A stretch of 64,000 nt of DNA from Clostridia bacterium (lineage in GTDB: Bacteria > Bacillota > Clostridia > Christensenellales > UBA1242): contig JAZOOJ010000006.1 of NCBI GenBank assembly GCA_045655005.1, positions 70,130 through 134,129 on the forward strand. Direction: 5' to 3'. The notes under the pieces are model-generated. The model made no database searches and was not told the origin of the DNA. It was given only the letters and a program-made list of their open reading frames with translations. The translations under genes and the position numbers were made by a program. Shown here piece after piece: positions 2,041 to 44,191 of the stretch. The stretch's first letter is position 1; each line of letters opens with the position of its first letter.

Positions 2041-2949
2041 ATGTTGGCAAAAATTATTCCTGCAGAATTACTAAATATGATAACAGCAAATTATGATTTA
2101 GAGTTTATATATGAAATACGAATAAGGCGAAATATGCCAATATGTATAAATGTTGCTGGAAAATATTTTGAGTTAAGAAGTCAAAGAGATAAAAAAATTG
2201 TATTTGCCGACAAACGCTTAATTGATTATATCTTGTTAAAAGCCACTGATTCGTCATTGTATTGTTATAACAATCAATTAAAGAATTGCTTTATTGCAAG
2301 TGTTGGGGGATTAAGGATTGGCGTATGTGGTGAGGTCGTGTATGATGACAACAAAAGTATAAAAACAATCAAGAATATATCTTCATTAAATATTAGGATT
2401 CCGCACGAAGTCGTAAATTGTTCAAAACCCATACAAAAATTTATTATGAATGAAAATGGTATAAATAATTGTTTAATTATTTCTCCGCCTTGCTGTGGAA
2501 AAACAACATTTATTAGAGATATTGCAAGAATTATTGGCTCGTCTGGTAAAGTTTTAAATACCTTAATTATTGATGAGAGATTTGAGATATGTGCGGGAAA
2601 CAATGGTGAACAATCTCTAAATGTGGGGTTATATGCTGATTGTATGTCTGGAAGTTCTAAGAATCTTGCCTTTACAGAAGGGGTTCGGTCGCTAAGACCT
2701 GATGTGATTATATGTGATGAACTTGCAAAGAAAGAAGATGTAGATGCGGTAAAACTTGCTATAAATTCGGGTGTTAAAGTCATTGCTACTGCTCACAGTG
2801 ACAGTTTTATGAATTTTAGGAGACGCACATATTTTAAAGAGTTGATAAATGAACAATATATAGATTTTTATATTTTTCTATCTATGAGAAATGGAGCAGG
2901 AACTATTGATGCAGTCTTTAATAAAGAATTAAGACCGGTGTGGGGGTGA
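2041..2949 (+). CDS. spoIIIAA: Stage III sporulation protein AA (ATPase)
   Basis: Walker A SPPCCGKTT and Walker B-like VIICDE. It is the first gene of an eight-gene spoIIIA-like operon. ATG 2041 has better spacing to the GGGAGA RBS than the track start 2035. Confidence 0.85.
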   Translation: MLAKIIPAELLNMITANYDLEFIYEIRIRRNMPICINVAGKYFELRSQRDKKIVFADKRLIDYILLKATDSSLYCYNNQLKNCFIASVGGLRIGVCGEVVYDDNKSIKTIKNISSLNIRIPHEVVNCSKPIQKFIMNENGINNCLIISPPCCGKTTFIRDIARIIGSSGKVLNTLIIDERFEICAGNNGEQSLNVGLYADCMSGSSKNLAFTEGVRSLRPDVIICDELAKKEDVDAVKLAINSGVKVIATAHSDSFMNFRRRTYFKELINEQYIDFYIFLSMRNGAGTIDAVFNKELRPVWG

Positions 2950-30912: not shown

Positions 30913-31998
30913 ATGAGTAAAACCGAACAAGAAATATATCAAGAAGTCGTTAATTATATAAATGGTCGAAATCACAAAAGACCTTGCACATTACAAACTA
31001 TTAAAAAAGAACTTAGAAGCCCAAGAATTGTAGAGTTGATTTTTTTAAATCCTAGAGTTTTTAATCTTGATGCAGAAATTTTACACGTTCCTAAAGAATT
31101 AAGAACTGAAGAATTATTGATGAGTTTTATACTTGAAGATCCTAAAAGATTAGAAAGTTTGCCAGAAGATGAGCAGAGTTTACCTTTACTAATAGCATAC
31201 GAATTTTCAAAACGACGTTATGAGTTTGCGTCTGCAAGAATGTGGGGTGTATGGAGAGAAAAGCTCGGATATTTAGGCAAGGCAAAAGAATATCGTGAAA
31301 GTGTAGTGCAAATTGCAGATCAGATTGAAAAGACTTGCAAGTGGGCGTATAAAGAAACAAGCGATTTTGAACTAATAGAAATGATAAAATCATATTGTGC
31401 CGTTAATGAAATCTCTTTAGAAAAACCAGAGGTTTATATTCCAAAGTATCGCAATGTAAATTTCGATTTAGATAAAAGATTAGTGATTTTGGTATCTGGG
31501 CATCCAGATTCTGGTAAAACATATTTTTCGAACCTTTTAGCGAATACGATATCTGGGGCATTTTGTTTTGATTCTGATATGCTTGATGAAAGAACTTATA
31601 AAATGCCATTTACAGAGTTAACTAGGAGAAGTGAAGTTGTTGTATTTTCAGATCCCGATGCTGATAGGTTCTTTGACGATGAGGAATTGAAGGGTAGTTA
31701 TGTAATAAATATTTATGTAAATCCTATTTCGATTGAAGAAATGTACAGACACTCAAAATATATGCGTGGAATACCGCAAGACGAATATGTAAAGCATTAT
31801 TCAATTGAAAGGAAGCCAAGCCCAGAAAGGTTTAAAGATGCGATTCAAGTTACTAATAATTATACGAGTGCAATTTATCAAGAAATAGATATGGTTATAG
31901 ATGAGATTACTCGAAGATTAAATCTATTTATAAAAGAGAAGATTACAAGAGAAGATATTGTCCCAGGCTATGATTTTTCACAACTTAAAAGCGAATAA
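30913..31998 (+). CDS. Orphan operon protein A: unknown N-terminal half plus C-terminal P-loop kinase-like domain
   Basis: 361 aa. Walker A GHPDSGKT (res 196-203), then FCFDSD, VVVFSD, and YVINIYVNPISIEEMYRH. This order resembles shikimate/gluconate/NMP-kinase-fold proteins. Residues 1-185 are not recognised. Confidence 0.6.
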   Translation: MSKTEQEIYQEVVNYINGRNHKRPCTLQTIKKELRSPRIVELIFLNPRVFNLDAEILHVPKELRTEELLMSFILEDPKRLESLPEDEQSLPLLIAYEFSKRRYEFASARMWGVWREKLGYLGKAKEYRESVVQIADQIEKTCKWAYKETSDFELIEMIKSYCAVNEISLEKPEVYIPKYRNVNFDLDKRLVILVSGHPDSGKTYFSNLLANTISGAFCFDSDMLDERTYKMPFTELTRRSEVVVFSDPDADRFFDDEELKGSYVINIYVNPISIEEMYRHSKYMRGIPQDEYVKHYSIERKPSPERFKDAIQVTNNYTSAIYQEIDMVIDEITRRLNLFIKEKITREDIVPGYDFSQLKSE

Positions 31999-32012
31999 AA
32001 GGGGGATAAAAA

Positions 32013-32768
32013 ATGTATTGGTGGCATTTATACGAAGATAAAAGGAATGAAGAATGGGAAACTGAACATTCTTCTTTGGGGCAAAAAAATGCCTATGCTA
32101 AATATTATAGGTGCAGAAAATATGTGTGTATGGACATTTCTCAAAAAACTTGGTGCGACATTCCGCAAGGCTGTGGTATTTTTGAGATTCCAAAAGGGAC
32201 AGAATGGCACTTCATTGGGAGAGTAGATACAACTGGTTGGGCAGGAAGTAATCCAGACTATTATTTTAGAGATTTTGAGAATAGAGAATTTGTAGGGTTT
32301 AGTACTATCAGTAATAAAAATATTTCAAGATATATGAAGACAGGGGCATTTTTTATTTACAACATAATGCCCGATGATATTGCACATATTTTTCCTATGG
32401 ATAGTGATACAAAAAAGCATGTTGAAGTTGAAAGTGAATTGTCGGGGCTTCCAAGTCTATGGTTAACATTAGATGAATTAGAGGCTATTAAAAACAAAAT
32501 TGGTTGCTATGATCAAATTACTTGCAGAACTAAAAGGAATGGCAAAATTATAAAACCCGTAGCAGTAGTTGCTTATGATAATGTAAGCGAAGAAATTGAA
32601 GAAATTGCATATGCTTTTGGGGTTCCAATCCTACTTACTCATCCAGATGAAAATGTAATTAATTTTAGTGGTGATATGTTGCGTCAAAGATATATGCTAA
32701 CGAGAGCATCAAAAGTTTTTAAAAAACCATATGACATCAATGTTGAATGTATGGAGTATTTTGATTAG
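32013..32768 (+). CDS. Orphan operon protein B: hypothetical, Trp/Cys-rich N-terminus
   Basis: 251 aa, 14 nt after protein A with a GGGGGA RBS. Cys pattern CX4C-X8-CX5C (res 34-54). No family recognised. Confidence 0.55.
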   Translation: MYWWHLYEDKRNEEWETEHSSLGQKNAYAKYYRCRKYVCMDISQKTWCDIPQGCGIFEIPKGTEWHFIGRVDTTGWAGSNPDYYFRDFENREFVGFSTISNKNISRYMKTGAFFIYNIMPDDIAHIFPMDSDTKKHVEVESELSGLPSLWLTLDELEAIKNKIGCYDQITCRTKRNGKIIKPVAVVAYDNVSEEIEEIAYAFGVPILLTHPDENVINFSGDMLRQRYMLTRASKVFKKPYDINVECMEYFD

Positions 32769-32798
32769 TTTAAAATAAAGATTGTAAGGGTGATAATT

Positions 32799-34703
32799 AT
32801 GGATCTAAATCAATTTTATAATCTAAGTGAAAATGAATTATTGACAGTTTTAATGAAACTTAAAGATGAGATGGGTGAAAATTTTAATAAACATATAGAA
32901 AAGCTTATTCACGAAAAATTAAGAGATTACCAAAACATCTTAAATTTTTATTATGATGTTGGCTATGGCGAAGGAAGTAATGAAGATTATATGTATTTCA
33001 AAAATCAACTTGAAAATGTCTTGCCGAACTTATTAAAACTTATTAATGTTGCAAGCAAGGTTGGTGTTTTTGTTGGCGACATTTTTGAAGAATTGGTAGA
33101 CAATGAGCTTTCATTTGAGGAATCACTAAATATTGATTTTAAGAAGAAATCAGTATTAAGTAAGGAACTATATAATAAATTTAAAGAGGTTGCACAACAG
33201 GTAAAAAATCCAAACGCATTATATTCGCTATATTTTATGACTGGCGACATCGATTACTTGCATAAATGTATTGACGTTTGTTCATTTGAGCAGTTGATTA
33301 AATTATTTGGTTTATTCAAAGAAGGCAAAGGCGAAAATGAGGTTATTATTACCAACAAGCCTAATAGGGCATCAAACAGATTAACAATTTCAGACTATCC
33401 TCTCTATGTACTAGAAGGCAGAAACTTTGATGATATGTATGAGTTATTAATAAGACGAATGGTACAAAATGCAAGTAAAGAAGAATTACAAAAATATTAT
33501 AGGTATGATTCAAGTCTAGATTTTAATATATTTGATATTTTAGTTGATGCTTGGAGAATTGGAGTTTTTAACAACGCAGATGAGTTCGCAAGATATGCTC
33601 TTGATAAACACTATTATCCAATAATTTTTGCCAAAGAGATGCAAGAAGAAGAGCTTTTCTTGGATTTTACAAGCGATGAAATATTGCTGGAAATTCTAGA
33701 ATTAATTAATACTGATAAAGAAAAGTGTTTAACAGAAAATGATAGTCAAGGTTTATTTTATTTAATAGAGCAAGAAATACAAGCGTTCTTAGCATTAGAC
33801 AATCCAAACATTAAGGGTGCTGATGTAGTGCTATCTAGGTTTAATACAAAGAAGCATTTATATTCTTGGATGCCAATAGCAAAAAGGTTGCTTGATTGCG
33901 AAAATGTAAACGCAGAGTTGTTTAAGTCTTGGGTGCAGGAATTTTTCAAAAATGATGAATTTTTCAAGAAATATTCTTTCGTAGGGAAGGAAGATTTTTG
34001 GGATTTCATCGCAAAAATTCCAGAAACTTTGCAAGAAGAAAAACAAGCGTTACAAATGTGGCGTTATTGTAGAGATAATTTACCAACACAAATACAACAT
34101 TATAAAAACACATTACATCGTGAGATGGCATTTTATAATAAAACAGGATATCTTAAAACCCGTATAATAGTATATCAAATTGGAGAGGAATATCTTTTGC
34201 AAGGTAATGATGGAATACGACGTAGATACAGAGATATATGTGGTGTAAGATTTCCAGTCGAAATTTCTAGTGGGTTGCCTTGGAGCGAAAGTGATTTTCA
34301 TGAGATGGAAGATTTACACCATTGGCATTGCGAAGTAGATGGTAATACACGTCATATGGAAGATTTTACGATATATGTTTGGTGTGTTGAAAATAAAGAT
34401 GGAACAATGGAGGCTGTTCATAAAGTCGGTCTAAATAACAGTCAAGGGGAAGCACATTCAATTGATCAACTTTATAGAGAGTTTAATGACGAGTATGTAA
34501 TTTATCTTAACAAGTTTATAGAAAGAGCAAACGATTTAACTAATGCTTTTAATCAAATTGTGTCAAGTTACTTATTAAATGCTCAGTATGATAGAAATTT
34601 ATTGCAAAAATTTGAAGAATTAAGAAAGCGTTTGTTTATTTGTGAGGCTAAACTTAAAGGTCAAAATATTGAAAATACAGAGCAGACAAGTGGAGAAAAT
34701 TAA
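32799..34703 (+). CDS. Orphan operon protein C: large hypothetical protein (helical N-terminal two-thirds, His/Cys/acidic beta-rich module, C-terminal coiled coil)
   Basis: 634 aa from ATG 32799 (the track uses GTG 32790). No family recognised. The segment HEMEDLHHWHCEVDGNTRHMEDFTIYVWCVENK lies at 34299-34397. Confidence 0.55.
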   Translation: MDLNQFYNLSENELLTVLMKLKDEMGENFNKHIEKLIHEKLRDYQNILNFYYDVGYGEGSNEDYMYFKNQLENVLPNLLKLINVASKVGVFVGDIFEELVDNELSFEESLNIDFKKKSVLSKELYNKFKEVAQQVKNPNALYSLYFMTGDIDYLHKCIDVCSFEQLIKLFGLFKEGKGENEVIITNKPNRASNRLTISDYPLYVLEGRNFDDMYELLIRRMVQNASKEELQKYYRYDSSLDFNIFDILVDAWRIGVFNNADEFARYALDKHYYPIIFAKEMQEEELFLDFTSDEILLEILELINTDKEKCLTENDSQGLFYLIEQEIQAFLALDNPNIKGADVVLSRFNTKKHLYSWMPIAKRLLDCENVNAELFKSWVQEFFKNDEFFKKYSFVGKEDFWDFIAKIPETLQEEKQALQMWRYCRDNLPTQIQHYKNTLHREMAFYNKTGYLKTRIIVYQIGEEYLLQGNDGIRRRYRDICGVRFPVEISSGLPWSESDFHEMEDLHHWHCEVDGNTRHMEDFTIYVWCVENKDGTMEAVHKVGLNNSQGEAHSIDQLYREFNDEYVIYLNKFIERANDLTNAFNQIVSSYLLNAQYDRNLLQKFEELRKRLFICEAKLKGQNIENTEQTSGEN

Positions 34704-34721
34704 AAAACAAAATAAGAATTA

Positions 34722-34750
34722 TTGACTTTAGTTGAACAATAGTATATACT
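34722..34750 (+). promoter_or_regulatory. Sigma-A promoter of the trpS leader
   Basis: TTGACT, 17-nt spacer, TATACT. The predicted transcription start is about 23 nt before the leader-peptide ATG. Confidence 0.6.
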
Positions 34751-34779
34751 AAAATCAATAATAGGAAAGGAGAGATTAT

Positions 34780-34812
34780 ATGTTTAATTCATTTATGTGG
34801 TGGCGTAGATAA
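34780..34812 (+). CDS. Putative trpS leader peptide MFNSFMWWRR with tandem Trp codons
   Basis: AAAGGAGAG SD ends 7 nt before the ATG. Ten codons including UGG-UGG at 34798-34803, then UAA. Lies 167 nt upstream of trpS and is immediately followed by alternative hairpins. Confidence 0.6.
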   Translation: MFNSFMWWRR

Positions 34813-34815
34813 TTT

Positions 34816-34858
34816 AGCGTTCGCAAAAGACTAATATGTTTTGTGAATGCTTTTTATT
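34816..34858 (+). terminator. Leader hairpin 1 (X1:Y1) with U-tract: pause or terminator element
   Basis: 13-bp stem 34816-34828 / 34839-34851 (two G-U pairs) followed by TTTTTATT. Confidence 0.45.
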
Positions 34859-34910
34859 GCGTCGCAAAACATATAAATGGATTAAATATTTTTAATATGA
34901 ATAAAATCTA

Positions 34911-34964
34911 AAACCCGTTGGTATGTTTTGTTTAATCAAACTTTCAACGGGTTTATTATATTTT
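34911..34964 (+). terminator. Leader hairpin 2 (T2), the probable attenuator terminator before trpS
   Basis: 10-bp stem AAACCCGTTG / CAACGGGTTT (34911-34920 / 34945-34954), with an apical 4-bp helix 34930-34933 / 34938-34941, then ATTATATTTT. Confidence 0.5.
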
Positions 34965-34978
34965 AGGAGATTTTAAGT

Positions 34979-35968
34979 ATGAAAAAAACTATGCTAACTG
35001 GTGTAAGACCAAGTGGGAACTTAACATTGGGAAATTATTTAGGGGCAATTAAAAATTTTGTTGATAAGCAAGATGAGTATGATAGTTACATTTTTCTTGC
35101 GGATTTGCACGCAATTACAAGTTATATTGAACCTCAAAAATTAAAAGATTCAGTATATAAATCTATTGCTATGTATTTGGCTTGTGGAGTAAATCCAGAA
35201 AAAACTATTATTTTTAAACAAAGCGATGTTTTAGAACATGGAACGCTGGGGTTTATAATGACATTTCAAACAAAAATGGGCGAACTGTCAAGAATGACGC
35301 AATTTAAGTCTAAGGCAAATAACAGTGGCAAAGAGGGGGTTGATACTGGGCTGTTTGTATATCCAACATTGATGGTCGCAGATATTTTATTGTATAACAC
35401 ATCAATTGTGCCTGTTGGAAAAGACCAACAGCAACACGTTGAATTAACACGTGATTTGGCTGAACGATTTAATAAAAGGTACGGAGAAACTTTTGTGATG
35501 CCAGACGTATACGTGGCACCTGTCGGCAATAAAATTTTAAATCTGCAAAACCCATCAGAAAAAATGAACAAATCCGATAGTGGAGATAATAAGGGAACGA
35601 TATTTTTATTAGACGATATTGAAGTTGCAAAGAAGAAAATAATGTCAGCAAAAACAGATTGCTTTAATAGGGTTCGCTTTGATGAAGAAAATCAACCAGG
35701 CATATCAAACCTTATGAGTATATTAAGCAAAATAACTAATGAAAGTTTTGAAAGTATTGAAAAAAGGTATGAAAATAAAGGCTATGGTGAATTTAAAAAA
35801 GAAGTTGCAGAAGTTGTCGCAAATTTGCTAACCGGTATTCAAAATAAATATCATAAATATGACGATAAGGAAATATTAAATAGTATATTAAGCAAAGGAG
35901 CAAAAGATGCTCAGTGTGTTGCCAATAAAACCTTACAAAGGGCGACAAAAGCCTTGGGACTAAATTAA
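34979..35968 (+). CDS. trpS: Tryptophan--tRNA ligase
   Basis: Class I motifs: HIGH-equivalent at the N-terminus (TGVRPSGNLTLGNYLG) and KMSKS-equivalent KMNKS. Confidence 0.95.
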   Translation: MKKTMLTGVRPSGNLTLGNYLGAIKNFVDKQDEYDSYIFLADLHAITSYIEPQKLKDSVYKSIAMYLACGVNPEKTIIFKQSDVLEHGTLGFIMTFQTKMGELSRMTQFKSKANNSGKEGVDTGLFVYPTLMVADILLYNTSIVPVGKDQQQHVELTRDLAERFNKRYGETFVMPDVYVAPVGNKILNLQNPSEKMNKSDSGDNKGTIFLLDDIEVAKKKIMSAKTDCFNRVRFDEENQPGISNLMSILSKITNESFESIEKRYENKGYGEFKKEVAEVVANLLTGIQNKYHKYDDKEILNSILSKGAKDAQCVANKTLQRATKALGLN

Positions 35969-35983
35969 TATTTATAAATAAAA

Positions 35984-36014
35984 ACAGTATTATGCAAACT
36001 TTGTATAATACTGT
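35984..36014. terminator. Hairpin between convergent trpS and the M16 peptidase gene
   Basis: 10-bp stem ACAGTATTAT / ATAATACTGT. The A/T-rich flanks fit the minus-strand gene best. Confidence 0.5.
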
Positions 36015-36022
36015 AAATAATT

Positions 36023-37324
36023 TTAAAATTCGAATTTAAAAATGTTAGATATTGTTTCATAAGTAGGTAGTTGTTCTTCGTTAACATCTCCCATAATTAC
36101 CACGTAAGGGAGATTATTTGAATTAAATATTGTTTTTGCATAGTCTTGCAATTCTTGTTTTTTAATCTTTTTAATCATTTTAATTGTCTTTTTTGATGTC
36201 ATTGTTTTTGATAATGATTGATACGTTAAAAAGTGGTTTAAGTTAAACTTTGCACGATTATATTTCATAGAACCATGCATCTCGTCGTGTGCATAAATTT
36301 CAGAGTTTTTGCTGTTTTTAAAGTCATCGTCAGGTATATCGTTCTTAATTATCGAATCAATACAAGATTTTAATACTTCAAAGCATCTTTGAATTTTATC
36401 TTGACTTGTTGAAATGCTGAAGCCAAATATCGCATCTTTATCGTCAAAGACTGGTATAAATGAGGAAGAGTTGTAAACTAAACCTTCATTTCTAAGTTTA
36501 TTGTAGAATTGATTTGTACCATAGTTAAAGTAGTTTGCAAGAATTGTGTCAAGTAATGTTTGTTTTTTATTTTCTTCGTCAAACTCATATTTAAAACCAA
36601 TTAATACTCGTGCTTGATTATTCTCGTTGTGGTGAATTATAATGGAGGGTTCTTTGGTTATCTTTATTGGGTAGAAGTTGTTTTTTAAGCTTTCATTTTT
36701 TTGTAAATTAGGAATAAAATACTTATCAACATACTTTTTTAATTTCCTAAACGAAAAATTACCGCAATACGATAAAATAAAATTATCTATACAAAAATTT
36801 TTGTCTTTGTAATTTATGAGTGTATTTGCGTCAATATTTGCAAGGTCGTCAACAGTACCCAACCTTTGTTCCAGGGTTAGAGTGTTTGTAAAATGTTTTC
36901 CAAATTGTTGTCCGATTTCGTGGTGTAAGTTGTCTATTGCTCTTTTATATTCTTCGGAAATCACGCTTTTTTCATTTTCTATTAACTCATCATCGCATAC
37001 AGAGTTTAATAAAATATCTGATGTGACGCTCATTGCTTTATCAAATAATCTGTTTGATTGAGAAAAGTCAATTGCGATTAAATTTGTACTTGTGTATGCG
37101 TTTAAAGAAGTGATTATACTACGCTCTTTATTTATTTCATCAAGCGTTAAGTTTTTTGTTTTTGTAAACATAGTATGCTCAACAAAGTGTGCAACTCCAT
37201 TTTGTTCATTTTTTATTGAACCACATAAGAAGCCTGCAATAACCGCAGAGTAATTAAGGCGTTTGTCTTTTTGATAAATTAAAGTTGCTCCATTTGAGTA
37301 TTTATATATTATTTTTCTTTTCAT
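36023..37324 (-). CDS. M16 (pitrilysin/insulinase) family zinc peptidase
   Basis: 433 aa. Inverted zincin motif HFVEH (GVAHFVEHTMF) near the N-terminus. Confidence 0.8.
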   Translation of the reverse strand: MKRKIIYKYSNGATLIYQKDKRLNYSAVIAGFLCGSIKNEQNGVAHFVEHTMFTKTKNLTLDEINKERSIITSLNAYTSTNLIAIDFSQSNRLFDKAMSVTSDILLNSVCDDELIENEKSVISEEYKRAIDNLHHEIGQQFGKHFTNTLTLEQRLGTVDDLANIDANTLINYKDKNFCIDNFILSYCGNFSFRKLKKYVDKYFIPNLQKNESLKNNFYPIKITKEPSIIIHHNENNQARVLIGFKYEFDEENKKQTLLDTILANYFNYGTNQFYNKLRNEGLVYNSSSFIPVFDDKDAIFGFSISTSQDKIQRCFEVLKSCIDSIIKNDIPDDDFKNSKNSEIYAHDEMHGSMKYNRAKFNLNHFLTYQSLSKTMTSKKTIKMIKKIKKQELQDYAKTIFNSNNLPYVVIMGDVNEEQLPTYETISNIFKFEF

Positions 37325-43303: not shown

Positions 43304-44059
43304 ATGAATTTTTTTATGAATGATTTTTGTATAATTTTTTCTAAACAAGATAATGATATATTTTTACATTTTTGGAAGAAGTTTGAGCAAGTTGCTGATA
43401 GGCTAAAAAGTGTTAACATAAGGAATGAAGAAGATTGCATAAAATTGTGTTTTTCTATTAAAAAATCGACCAAGGGCATTTTAGATCAAATTAAAACAAA
43501 CCTTGCTGAAACTATCGTATTAAACTATAAGTATAAGTATATGACATCAAATTTGCAACTCCCAGATTCTTTTAAACAATATAAAGATGCTCTTTGTAAA
43601 TCGCTTGCTGTATTTGACAGGGCCTCAGATATTTTAGAAGTTGAGTCGCTTTTAAACTTTACATCTTCGATTAACATAGATTCTTTCTATATTTTTAAGC
43701 TGTCTACATTGCGTGCAAAATGGAAAGAGGTAACAGATTTATTTTTAGAAAATATGGCAAATATTTTATACTCTAATAGTTATATTGAATTAATACGTTA
43801 TTTAATTATGACGACAGAAAGCGATGGAGTAGAGGTGTTTGTGTATAAATATAATAATATAATTTATTTAAGAAACAAAGATGGTGCAGACTTGTCAGAG
43901 CCTATTGAAGTTAATGAAAACTATTTACCAGAGGTTGTAAGCGAATTAATTATGCTTGCACCAATGAACATTTATTTAAAATACGATAGCAACAAGACAA
44001 AAGAATTGACTGAATTAATAATTGATTTATTTGCAGAAAAAGTAGTTGTGAATACTTGA
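43304..44059 (+). CDS. ytxC: YtxC-like putative sporulation protein
   Basis: 251 aa lying immediately upstream of thrS, as ytxC does in Bacillus. The assignment rests mainly on synteny and size. Confidence 0.45.
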   Translation: MNFFMNDFCIIFSKQDNDIFLHFWKKFEQVADRLKSVNIRNEEDCIKLCFSIKKSTKGILDQIKTNLAETIVLNYKYKYMTSNLQLPDSFKQYKDALCKSLAVFDRASDILEVESLLNFTSSINIDSFYIFKLSTLRAKWKEVTDLFLENMANILYSNSYIELIRYLIMTTESDGVEVFVYKYNNIIYLRNKDGADLSEPIEVNENYLPEVVSELIMLAPMNIYLKYDSNKTKELTELIIDLFAEKVVVNT

Positions 44060-44191
44060 CAAATAATTTCAGCCTAGTGTAAACTTAACTAAAAGGTTTT
44101 TGCGTAAAAATTACATAAGAAGGGATAAGTTTAATTTATTAACTTATGTAATTTTCATATTAAAAAAGCATTTGTTTTAGCAGGAGTAAAT

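Follow-up and report, generated by a model that had tools for sequence, protein, structure and literature searches.

Architecture of the trpS leader

The gene trpS lies at 34979-35968 and is preceded by a Shine-Dalgarno (SD) sequence, AGGAG, at 34965-69; all features described here are on the forward strand, and coordinates count from the first letter of the 64-kb stretch of DNA that was analysed (the window). The trpS product was identified with both Pfam (tRNA-synt_1b, E = 8.5e-68) and NCBIfam (TIGR00233 trpS, 344 bits; cut-off, 177), and trpS is the putative regulated gene of the leader that precedes it. A phage origin of the window was considered and rejected, as a megablast search against phage records was empty and the neighbouring genes are housekeeping (FakA, RecG, ArgRS and ThrRS).

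The leader begins with a sigma-70-type promoter, found by promoter scan (TTGACT at 34722-34727, a 17-nt spacer and TATACT at 34745-34750). Reading the sequence further, an SD (AAGGAG, 34767-34772) stands 7 nt 5′ of the start codon of a short open reading frame (ORF), which runs from ATG 34780 to TAA 34812 and encodes MFNSFMWWRR, with the tandem Trp codons UGG UGG at 34798-34803. As RNA, this ORF is the first of six interacting segments, A to F. Segment A (34780-34808) is the 5′ strand of a long-range helix with segment D, in which its partners are 34857-34865 and 34870-34889; this 29-bp helix A:D encloses the hairpin B:C and dominates the minimum free energy (MFE) fold. The Trp codons sit within helix A:D, and their conservation is partly structural. 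Segment B (34816-34828), which holds the element X1 (34822-34828), is the 5′ arm of hairpin B:C (34816-28/34839-51; 13 bp, -15.7 kcal/mol). Segment C (34834-34851), which holds Y1 (34835-34844), can pair with B through 34839-51 or with D through 34834-46, the latter forming helix C:D (34834-46/34862-74; 13 bp). Directly 3′ of hairpin B:C is a U-rich tract, UUUUUAUU (34852-34859), a candidate RNA polymerase pause site or weak terminator.

Segment D (34857-34889), which holds X2 (34863-34869), is the central switch strand, with A, C or E as its partner. Segment E (34911-34931) combines the 5′ arm of a terminator (34911-20) with the Y2 element (34921-31), where the Y2 repeat copy itself is read from the sequence at 34922-34931. 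As the antiterminator partner of D 34864-34882, segment E forms 16 pairs: the core of helix D:E (34864-74/34921-31) has 9 Watson-Crick and 2 G-U pairs, and is prolonged by 34876-34880/34915-34919, which reaches into the terminator 5′ arm. Between D and E is a weak local hairpin, H (34878-83/34905-10, spanning 34878-34910; -3.6 kcal/mol). Segment F (34945-34964) consists of the terminator 3′ arm, CAACGGGUUU (34945-54), and a U-rich tail, which in the window itself is interrupted (UUUAUUAUAUUUU). Together, E and F form a GC-rich 10-bp stem (34911-20/34945-54; -16 kcal/mol) that is predicted to terminate transcription, although a simple terminator scan passed over it because its loop is 24 nt long. 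Structure in the 234-nt leader is far above chance, with a folding energy of -65.4 kcal/mol versus -37.8 ± 3.7 for shuffled sequences (z = -7.4).

An earlier note on this DNA had described the promoter, the SD, the ORF with its UGG-UGG, and the elements X1, X2, Y1 and Y2, and all of these coordinates proved exact. The pair list likewise returned its three helices (X1:Y1, Y1:X2 and X2:Y2) and its terminator-like hairpin at the positions and with the pair counts given there. That inventory was correct as far as it went, but lacked helix A:D, the extension of X2:Y2 into the terminator arm and the weak hairpin at 34878-83/34905-10.

Conservation and covariation across trpS leaders

Among low-GC gut Clostridia, about 35 genomes, distinct at the species level, have a homologous leader upstream of trpS, and their tryptophanyl-tRNA synthetases (TrpRS) are 71-88% identical. 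All host organisms of the compared leaders are uncultured and represented by metagenome-assembled genomes (MAGs); they are small-genome gut Clostridia, and one MAG belongs to Ca. Caccovivens (GTDB Christensenellales, family UBA1242; PMC8035907). A -35/-10 pair is present at a matching distance in 34 of 36 homologous leaders, with the -10 box ending 18-38 nt 5′ of the leader ATG, and a GGAG-type SD occurs in 34/35 homologues. Every trpS leader (35/35) has an ORF of 10-12 codons with an invariant ATG, an in-frame stop and two or more Trp codons, with a third Trp codon in 11 of them. The position of the stop and the last codons of the ORF vary among homologues, and in L029 the peptide is rearranged (LWIW) with two Trp codons retained; a distant subfamily (L044, L058 and L061) has a single Trp codon. 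The TGG at window positions 34801-34803 never varies, in contrast to the bases it pairs with, and wherever pairs involving Trp codons differ between leaders, the variation is always on the D side, with UGG never altered. These patterns indicate that a coding constraint acts on the Trp codons in addition to RNA structure. Spacing is also regular, as B begins 4 nt 3′ of the stop codon in 23/35 leaders, and the first base of Trp codon 1 lies 19-22 nt from the start of B in 34/35 (17 nt in L029).

Conservation at the nucleotide level is very strong across segments B-E, where 35 columns are invariant, and each of the alternative helices shows compensatory changes. In helix A:D, 88% of alignment cells are paired in the lower part and 80% in the upper part, with double-sided changes in 10 pairs. 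The corresponding values are 97.5% for B:C (compensatory changes in 5 pairs), 92% for C:D (3 pairs), 96.6% for D:E (one pair, CG to UA) and 90% for E:F (7/10 pairs), and these covariation values were reached by 0/500 shuffles. A three-way covariation is seen in L026, L035 and L047, where C to U in D is accompanied by G to A in Y2, while the G of Y1 is kept as a G-U pair. RNAalifold independently predicted A:D, B:C and the terminator, with 16/36 pairs compensatory, and in L016, L020 and L012 compensatory changes preserve hairpin H. The earlier note had proposed such an alignment as a check, and in it the WW peptide and the X/Y complementarity are conserved, with compensatory changes, across about 35 species. 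This comparative evidence makes a Trp attenuator of trpS, in place of a T-box, a well supported prediction.

Ribosome position and the proposed mechanism

Full-length equilibrium folding proved uninformative as a test of the switch, because the terminator is the MFE structure in every ribosome state once its 3′ arm is present. Since this is so, read-through must depend on the antiterminator folding ahead of the terminator, in the manner of textbook attenuators. Prefixes of the nascent transcript were used instead, with ribosome-covered bases masked and the MFE structure calculated for 35 species. In this mask folding, D:E forms in 34/35 species with Trp codon 1 in the A site and in 33/35 with Trp codon 2, but in only 3/35 with the stop codon in the A site and in 5/35 without a ribosome. 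The scheme sketched in the earlier note, where a stall at Trp is ON and a ribosome at the stop codon is OFF, is thereby reproduced in 33-34 of the 35 species. In the model, D:E results from stalls at other codons too, as late as two before the stop, such that the Trp codons are not singled out.

We consider it probable that the trpS leader is a classical ribosome-mediated transcription attenuator, one that would raise trpS transcription when charged tRNA-Trp is scarce. Features expected of such an element are found in the prediction, namely an ORF with its own SD, cognate codons, a predicted terminator, a mutually exclusive antiterminator and, in silico only, a dependence on ribosome position. 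Transcription would start about 7 nt past the -10 box, and a ribosome would load on the 10-codon leader ORF while polymerase transcribes the six segments. When Trp-tRNA is scarce, the ribosome would stall with UGG 34798 or 34801 in the A site, covering A and leaving about 3-6 nt between its leading edge and B. Formation of hairpin B:C would then deprive D of C as well as A, and the emerging E (34913-31) would pair with D (34864-82), occupying the terminator 5′ arm and allowing read-through into trpS. When Trp-tRNA is plentiful, the ribosome would proceed to the UAA at 34810 and cover the first 6-7 nt of B, which frees C to pair with D; with C:D formed, E:F would fold as an intrinsic terminator. 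If the ribosome is absent or has departed, the ORF would pair with D in the 29-bp helix around B:C, and E:F would terminate again. In this scheme the ORF would act as a sixth segment, whose pairing with D provides a state in which no ribosome also means OFF. We infer translation of the ORF, stalling at the Trp codons, termination at E:F and the kinetic win of the antiterminator, and the U-tract after B:C would serve as a pause site that synchronises polymerase and ribosome.

The earlier note had held that the polarity could not be decided from the sequence, a view that no longer stands. The conserved helix D:E is formable only with B:C formed and the ORF covered, and therefore the stalled ribosome corresponds to the antitermination state. 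By this logic the polarity, with the stalled ribosome as ON, appears settled, and D:E and A:D are the features of the model that decide it.

The same scaffold before other genes

The scaffold search with model R1 gave about 60 members in the sequences examined, and the copies before the genes named next score 107-165 bits. The scaffold precedes trpB-trpS in L024 and L030 and trpB in L084 and L091, where the peptides contain WW. It is also found upstream of an ArgE/DapE-like gene of the M20 kind, where the leaders mix Trp and His codons, and upstream of a GNAT acetyltransferase gene, where the ORF has three Cys codons and no Trp. The peptides of these GNAT-linked leaders are MF[NS]LCICLCIK in L098 and L105 and MFNLVFCLCCI in L108-110, and stalls at their Cys codons give D:E in the mask model, except at the third Cys codon of L098. 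From these sequences, the leader codons appear to track the regulated gene. A metagenome pattern scan gave 24 matches, 10 of which were unrelated repeats or chance and had no model R1 match.

A paralogous copy in L031 carries His codons (MVYSFVLLHHHR*) and lies upstream of a SLOG/TIGR00725-like gene. In three other contigs, no such leader was found in front of homologues of this gene, and the mask model gives no antiterminator when the ribosome stalls at the L031 His codons; a His sensor is accordingly not claimed for L031.

These observations invite the tentative proposal, which falls somewhat short of our favour, that the leader is a portable cassette that spread within low-GC gut Clostridia genomes, displaced the trpS T-box, and was re-programmed by exchanging two or three leader codons together with compensating changes on the partner strand. 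Its versions would be Trp (trpS, trpB-trpS and the ArgE/DapE-like hydrolase), Cys (GNAT) and possibly His. If true, the leader would represent a natural, modular and "codon-programmable" RNA switch, and would suggest Trp- and Cys-related roles for an unannotated hydrolase and an unannotated acetyltransferase. Judged by their leaders, the ArgE/DapE-like hydrolase and stand-alone trpB look like Trp-salvage genes, and the GNAT protein may act in cysteine metabolism. The presence of Trp or Cys codons according to the downstream gene, on one scaffold, offers a handle for function prediction.

Alternative explanations

The U-tract that follows B:C allows the leader to be read with reverse polarity, where B:C and the U-tract form the regulated terminator, a ribosome at the stop codon melts B:C, and general translation rather than Trp is sensed. 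Hairpin B:C, with its 13 bp and -15.7 kcal/mol, is of a suitable kind, and conservation of the tract behind it is 90% or higher in the alignment; efficient termination at B:C would turn the stalled state OFF. However, a ribosome at the stop codon gives C:D, and E:F folds in 32/35 species, so that both branches would be OFF. The conserved and covarying helix D:E would be left without a role, Trp and Cys codons that track the regulated gene would go unexplained, and the U-tract is degenerate in some members (L012, L028 and L033, for example). B:C with its U-tract is thus judged unlikely to be the regulated terminator.

Strong conservation of segments B-E and the participation of the ORF sequence itself in a helix would also suit an effector other than the ribosome, with the leader acting as a small-molecule riboswitch or protein-binding RNA and the short ORF being incidental. 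Such an incidental ORF is difficult to reconcile with an SD, ATG, frame and stop codon that are conserved despite the varying stop position and last codons, with a UGG that remains constant while its pairing partners change, and with the replacement of Trp by Cys codons in precisely those leaders whose downstream gene has no link to Trp. The alternative pairings account for the conserved bases, and neither a multi-helix junction nor a conserved pocket of unpaired bases is obvious. A binding site for TRAP, defined by nine to eleven (G/U)AG triplets spaced 2-3 nt apart, is not apparent, as the leader has seven scattered triplets and no run of four or more. Neither the Rfam Trp_leader (RF00513) nor other Rfam amino-acid leaders match at E<=10 in 34650-35050, and the only Rfam matches in this interval are four chance-level ones to unrelated families (E = 0.1-1). 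We regard an effector of this kind as very unlikely.

Peptides of 7-10 residues can arrest ribosomes, as in the Erm leaders, and this precedent raises the further alternative of nascent-peptide arrest of the Erm, Cat or TnaC type, in which MFNSF(I)WWR would stall on a drug or on free tryptophan. The N-terminal MFN(S/L)F is retained even in the Cys variant, but the pairing partner of this part of the ORF is the conserved 3′ half of D, which accounts for its retention, and L016, L019 and L020 carry compensatory changes. The variable part of the peptide comprises exactly the amino-acid-specific codons, and trpS and trpB need induction at low rather than high Trp, making peptide arrest highly improbable.

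In Firmicutes, T-boxes are the usual regulators of trpS, and a T-box (RF00230) does precede trpS in the more distant relatives L041 and L060 (110.7 and 102.6 bits). Against this working positive control, RF00230 has no match that reaches the gathering score in the 64-kb window and, in 34650-35050, none even at E<=10. The leader also has no T-box core sequence; it is an element of about 200 nt whose helices are all accounted for and whose ORF looks translated. A T-box too divergent for the Rfam model, or another kind of leader that senses tRNA, is therefore effectively refuted here. Together, the Rfam scans and the triplet and core searches rule out a T-box, a proteobacterial Trp leader and a TRAP site, and the first of these outcomes is as the earlier note had expected.

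Relation to known systems

The predicted ribosome-mediated attenuator follows a textbook mechanism. An attenuator of trpRS1 in Streptomyces was reportedly described by Vecchione and Sello. Leader-peptide attenuators have also been predicted or tested for Streptomyces trpS and leuS (PMC1262725), and the E. coli pheST leader (pheM) similarly places an aminoacyl-tRNA synthetase gene under a leader peptide rich in cognate codons. Unlike the leader described here, the pheM and Streptomyces trpS/leuS attenuators belong to other phyla, and they are without sequence similarity to it. Within Firmicutes, Naville and Gautheret (2010; PMC2965389) predicted His leader peptides in bacilli, where they lie upstream of hisZ and of a hisS paralogue. 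These are likewise "regular" leader-peptide attenuators predicted to replace a T-box before a gene of the aminoacyl-tRNA synthetase family, but they concern His, the Bacillus lineage and an unrelated RNA, and no scaffold shared between amino acids is described there. The reading of the earlier note, that a leader peptide stands in for the T-box at an aminoacyl-tRNA synthetase gene, has comparative support, but the rarity it had attached to this arrangement in Firmicutes should be toned down in view of these predicted hisS-paralogue leaders (PMC2965389).

In the literature searched, the coverage of which was incomplete, no description of a Trp leader before trpS in Clostridia was found. The locus would add a well-supported case, from comparative sequence analysis and folding models, of leader-peptide attenuation at an aminoacyl-tRNA synthetase gene in Firmicutes, and the RNA family is absent from Rfam, to which it could be added. 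A T-box before trpS shares the regulatory position and, by prediction, the tRNA-Trp charging signal and the antitermination output; in contrast, uncharged tRNA is sensed directly by the T-box, which lacks an ORF, and the window's leader is without T-box features. Among related genomes, a T-box and a leader peptide thus appear to be exchanged at one gene, trpS.

With E. coli trpL (RF00513), the leader has in common the tandem UGG near the end of a short ORF, a mutually exclusive terminator and antiterminator and, by prediction, read-through at low charged tRNA-Trp. It differs in having six segments rather than four; trpL also controls biosynthetic genes rather than trpS and is proteobacterial, and Rfam gives the window's leader no match to that family at E<=10. 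The his operon leader, hisL, of Salmonella and E. coli is a six-segment relay attenuator. Here too, a leader ORF carries the regulatory codons, a chain of hairpins (B:C with D:E versus C:D with E:F) would relay the ribosome position to a distant terminator, and a third state, that of no translation, would also terminate. The sequences of hisL and the present leader are unrelated, and the latter has Trp instead of His codons, two or three of them as opposed to seven in hisL. In addition, its ORF pairs with D across B:C and not with B, its target is an aminoacyl-tRNA synthetase, and its host belongs to the Clostridia. With its six segments, this compact relay could be a starting design for synthetic sensors of amino acids.

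Architecture of the Trp-codon leader

The leader of trpS is, judged from its sequence and from folding models, likely to be a Trp-sensing, ribosome-mediated transcription attenuator that would be ON when the ribosome stalls at the Trp codons. The gene downstream (34979-35968) is trpS by its Pfam tRNA-synt_1b match and its TIGR00233 score (344 bits, cut-off 177). A promoter scan places TTGACT from 34722 and, after a 17-nt spacer, TATACT ending at 34750, followed on the same plus strand by the Shine-Dalgarno AAGGAG (34767-34772) and the leader ORF MFNSFMWWRR (ATG 34780 to TAA 34812), where UGG UGG occupies 34798-34803. Re-reading the sequence returned each of these features as the earlier note had placed them, along with the two copies of CGCAAAA (X1, X2) and of TATGTTTTGT (Y1, Y2), and a pair listing agreed with its base-pair counts for four helices. 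The 234-nt leader folds at -65.4 kcal/mol versus -37.8 +/- 3.7 for shuffled sequences (z = -7.4). In this fold X1:Y1 is enclosed by a helix that had been overlooked, 29 bp long with interruptions, in which the leader ORF itself (34780-34808) forms one strand and 34857-34889 the other. Pair inspection extends X2:Y2 beyond one A-G mismatch (34876-34880 with 34915-34919), so that this helix invades the terminator 5′ arm. We therefore refer to six segments: A, the leader ORF; B, the X1 arm; C, the Y1 arm; D, X2 plus its 3′ extension; E, the terminator 5′ arm with Y2; and F, the terminator 3′ arm. D:E is the predicted antiterminator and E:F the predicted terminator.

Conservation and covariation

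A TrpRS protein search of species-representative genomes gave about 40 MAGs with 71-88% identity, labelled Clostridia or Bacilli and originating from human, ruminant, rabbit and chicken guts. One of them, Ca. Caccovivens, is placed by GTDB in Christensenellales, family UBA1242 (PMC8035907). A homologous leader lies immediately 5′ of trpS in 35 of these genomes, where the WW peptide and the X/Y complementarity described in the earlier note are both kept. Of 36 leaders, 34 keep the promoter in register; the ORF has 10-12 codons with an invariant ATG in 35/35, and a GGAG-type Shine-Dalgarno is present in 34/35. All 35 contain at least two Trp codons, including the rearranged peptide of L029 (MVNSFILWIWRL then stop; L-numbers denote homologous contigs or loci from other genomes), and 11 end with a third one (WWRW or WWLW before the stop). 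Both the type and the position of the stop codon vary. In L039 (1729-3618), trpS is broken after about codon 111 by an insert of about 900 nt carrying a 244-aa lipoprotein-like ORF, explained by an insertion or pseudogene or else by an assembly error.

Covariation was counted on the 35-sequence alignment for three structures, with 500 column shuffles each, and every proposed helix is supported by it. The fraction of paired cells is 88% for the lower part of A:D (7 pairs changed on both sides), 80% for its upper part (3 pairs), 97.5% for B:C (5 pairs), 92% for C:D (3 pairs), 96.6% for D:E (1 pair) and 90% for E:F (7 of 10 pairs). In each structure, none of the 500 shuffles matched the observed paired fraction, number of double-sided pairs or covariation score, and sliding the partner strand by 1-3 columns lowers pairing to about 40-57%. 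RNAalifold, supplied with no structure, predicted A:D, B:C and E:F, with 16 of 36 pairs compensatory. In L026, L035 and L047, CAC in D has become CAU and UUG in Y2 has become UUA, while the G of Y1 is retained and pairs as G-U; the change in D is thus matched in its antiterminator partner. Among pairs made by the Trp codons themselves, all variation is on the D side and UGG is never altered, a sign that these bases are constrained beyond pairing.

Predicted switch behaviour and polarity

We modelled the growing transcript by folding it at a series of lengths with the ribosome-covered positions masked; the footprint was assumed to extend 12 nt upstream and 15 nt downstream of the first base in the P site. 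The distance from the first base of Trp codon 1 to the start of B is 19-22 nt in 34/35 leaders (17 nt in L029), and B follows the stop codon by 4 nt in 23/35 (range -1 to 5 nt). Under this footprint a ribosome awaiting Trp-tRNA leaves B free, while one at the stop codon covers 6-7 nt of it. In the window's leader, the ribosome-free transcript folds into A:D, B:C and the terminator, and at no length into D:E. A stall at either of the two Trp codons leads to B:C, with D:E (16 pairs) as the minimum free energy (MFE) structure after E and before F emerges. A ribosome at the stop codon gives C:D and the terminator, again with no D:E at any length. Across species, D:E is the MFE structure in 34/35 when the A site holds Trp codon 1, in 33/35 when it holds Trp codon 2, in 3/35 when it holds the stop codon and in 5/35 with no ribosome, reproducing the switch that the earlier note had proposed. 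Scanning the A site along the ORF puts the switch point between the second-to-last and last sense codons, although in this mask model a stall at any earlier codon likewise gives ON. In the complete leader, thermodynamics always favours the terminator, and hence read-through needs the antiterminator to form first, as in textbook attenuators.

The earlier note considered polarity undecidable from sequence owing to the U-tract after B:C (34852-34859), but comparative logic decides it: a ribosome stalled at the Trp codons would be the ON state, because the conserved, covarying D:E needs C held by B and A covered. The opposite polarity, in which B:C and its own U-tract form the regulated terminator, is unlikely, since both branches would then terminate and D:E would be left purposeless. 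This U-tract would then more probably act as a pause site that gives the ribosome time to close the gap, or as a terminator that leaks. Bacillus has NusA- and NusG-dependent pause sites of the hairpin plus T-rich type. The doubts about the attenuator reading include the role of this U-tract and the place of the Trp codons within a helix, which confounds coding with structural conservation.

Cys-codon version upstream of a GNAT acetyltransferase

A covariance model built from the alignment found further leader copies, including some (107-122 bits) that precede a GNAT gene of 175-178 aa and have three Cys codons instead of Trp. Relatives were found by searching for GNAT homologues and inspecting their contigs. 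The peptides, each ending at a stop, are MFNLCICLCIK in L098 (1024-1214, minus strand), MFSLCICLCIK in L105 (2300-2490; GNAT 82% identical) and MFNLVFCLCCI in L108-L110 (2301-2492; 64% identical), while L106, a higher-GC GNAT homologue, is without such a leader. In L098, Cys codons stand where the Trp codons stood and B, C, D, E and F are almost unaltered. Mask folding of the Cys version yields the antiterminator when the ribosome stalls at a Cys codon, the third one of L098 excepted, but not in the stop-codon and no-ribosome states. When putative regulatory codons vary with the downstream gene while the scaffold otherwise stays the same, this is the hallmark of attenuation by the ribosome, and an RNA that binds a ligand, protein or tRNA would not readily explain such a swap. 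These copies hint at one scaffold re-programmed between amino acids.

Other genes under related leaders

The leader also precedes trpB (TIGR00263, 562 bits), which overlaps trpS in L030 (1575-3981) and L024 (10-2417), and it precedes trpB in L091 and L084 too, all with WW-containing peptides. The leader-linked trpB stands alone, and where it overlaps trpS no trpA is visible between the two. This suggests that indole salvage is co-regulated with TrpRS. A different trpS type (43-49% identical) follows leaders with a single Trp codon in L044, L058 and L061 (MFRMYGWRK, MFKFFGWRA and MIKFFGWRI), which are divergent versions of the same layout. An ArgE/DapE-like M20 hydrolase (deacylase) follows the leader in L046, L085, L090, L099, L101 and L102, with peptides MFNSFVMWHLHK, MFNSFNMWHWHN and MFNSLVLWHS; these peptides mix Trp and His codons, and in L046 the M20 gene is split in two ORFs. 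L031 carries, divergently oriented and adjoining its trpS leader, a second copy (2229-2416, minus strand; 75 bits; MVYSFVLLHHHR then stop) before a SLOG cluster4/TIGR00725-like gene. This is a single instance; three other contigs with homologous genes showed no such leader, and its His codons lie where, in the mask model, a stall should not work.

Comparison with known systems

Conservation, covariation and mask folding support and extend the earlier interpretation of a Trp-codon leader-peptide attenuator. The nearest relay topology is that of the textbook his leader (B:C + D:E versus C:D + E:F, plus an untranslated OFF state), while the sensor codons are those of the E. coli trp leader and the target class is shared with E. 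coli pheST and with Streptomyces trpS and leuS, for which attenuators have been predicted (PMC1262725). The earlier note named T-box riboswitches as the general regulators of trpS in Firmicutes. According to a 2005 paper, no aminoacyl-tRNA synthetase gene of Firmicutes was known to use classical attenuation (PMC1262725), but there is a predicted precedent in bacilli, where Naville and Gautheret described His leader peptides before hisS paralogues (PMC2965389). The trpS leader is a new RNA family of a known kind, and its mechanism is not new; it is absent from Rfam 15, and the literature searched gave no published description. The mechanism is textbook, but the lineage and gene are unexpected, and the comparative support is unusually clean.

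At gathering score, tRNA was the sole Rfam match in the window, with no T-box even though thrS, argS and trpS all lie within it, and nothing credible appeared in the leader at E<=10; the earlier note had expected no T-box hit. Canonical T-boxes (RF00230) lie directly 5′ of trpS in L041 (766-955, 110.7 bits; TrpRS 51% identical) and L060 (2542-2730, 102.6 bits), from MAGs labelled Erysipelotrichaceae and, for L060, Izemoplasmatales. Thus, trpS is under a T-box in some more distant relatives and under a leader peptide in this clade.

Genomic setting

Searching phage records with the window gave no match; it is bacterial chromosome with 32% GC and almost all genes on one strand, and FakA, RecG, ArgRS and ThrRS are encoded nearby. 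The roughly 130-nt thrS leader (44057-44191) lacks a T-box; it contains a TTGACA resembling a promoter element and, at 44107-44155, a hairpin of 13 bp with UUUU behind it, and its fold z-score is only -1.9. Just 5′ of the trpS leader are three consecutive ORFs of 361, 251 and 637 aa (30913-34703) with no Pfam match, the second starting MYWWHLYEDKRNEEW. Between the convergent trpS and M16-family peptidase genes (the latter at 36023-37324, minus strand), a perfect 14-bp hairpin (35984-36014) is probably a bidirectional terminator.
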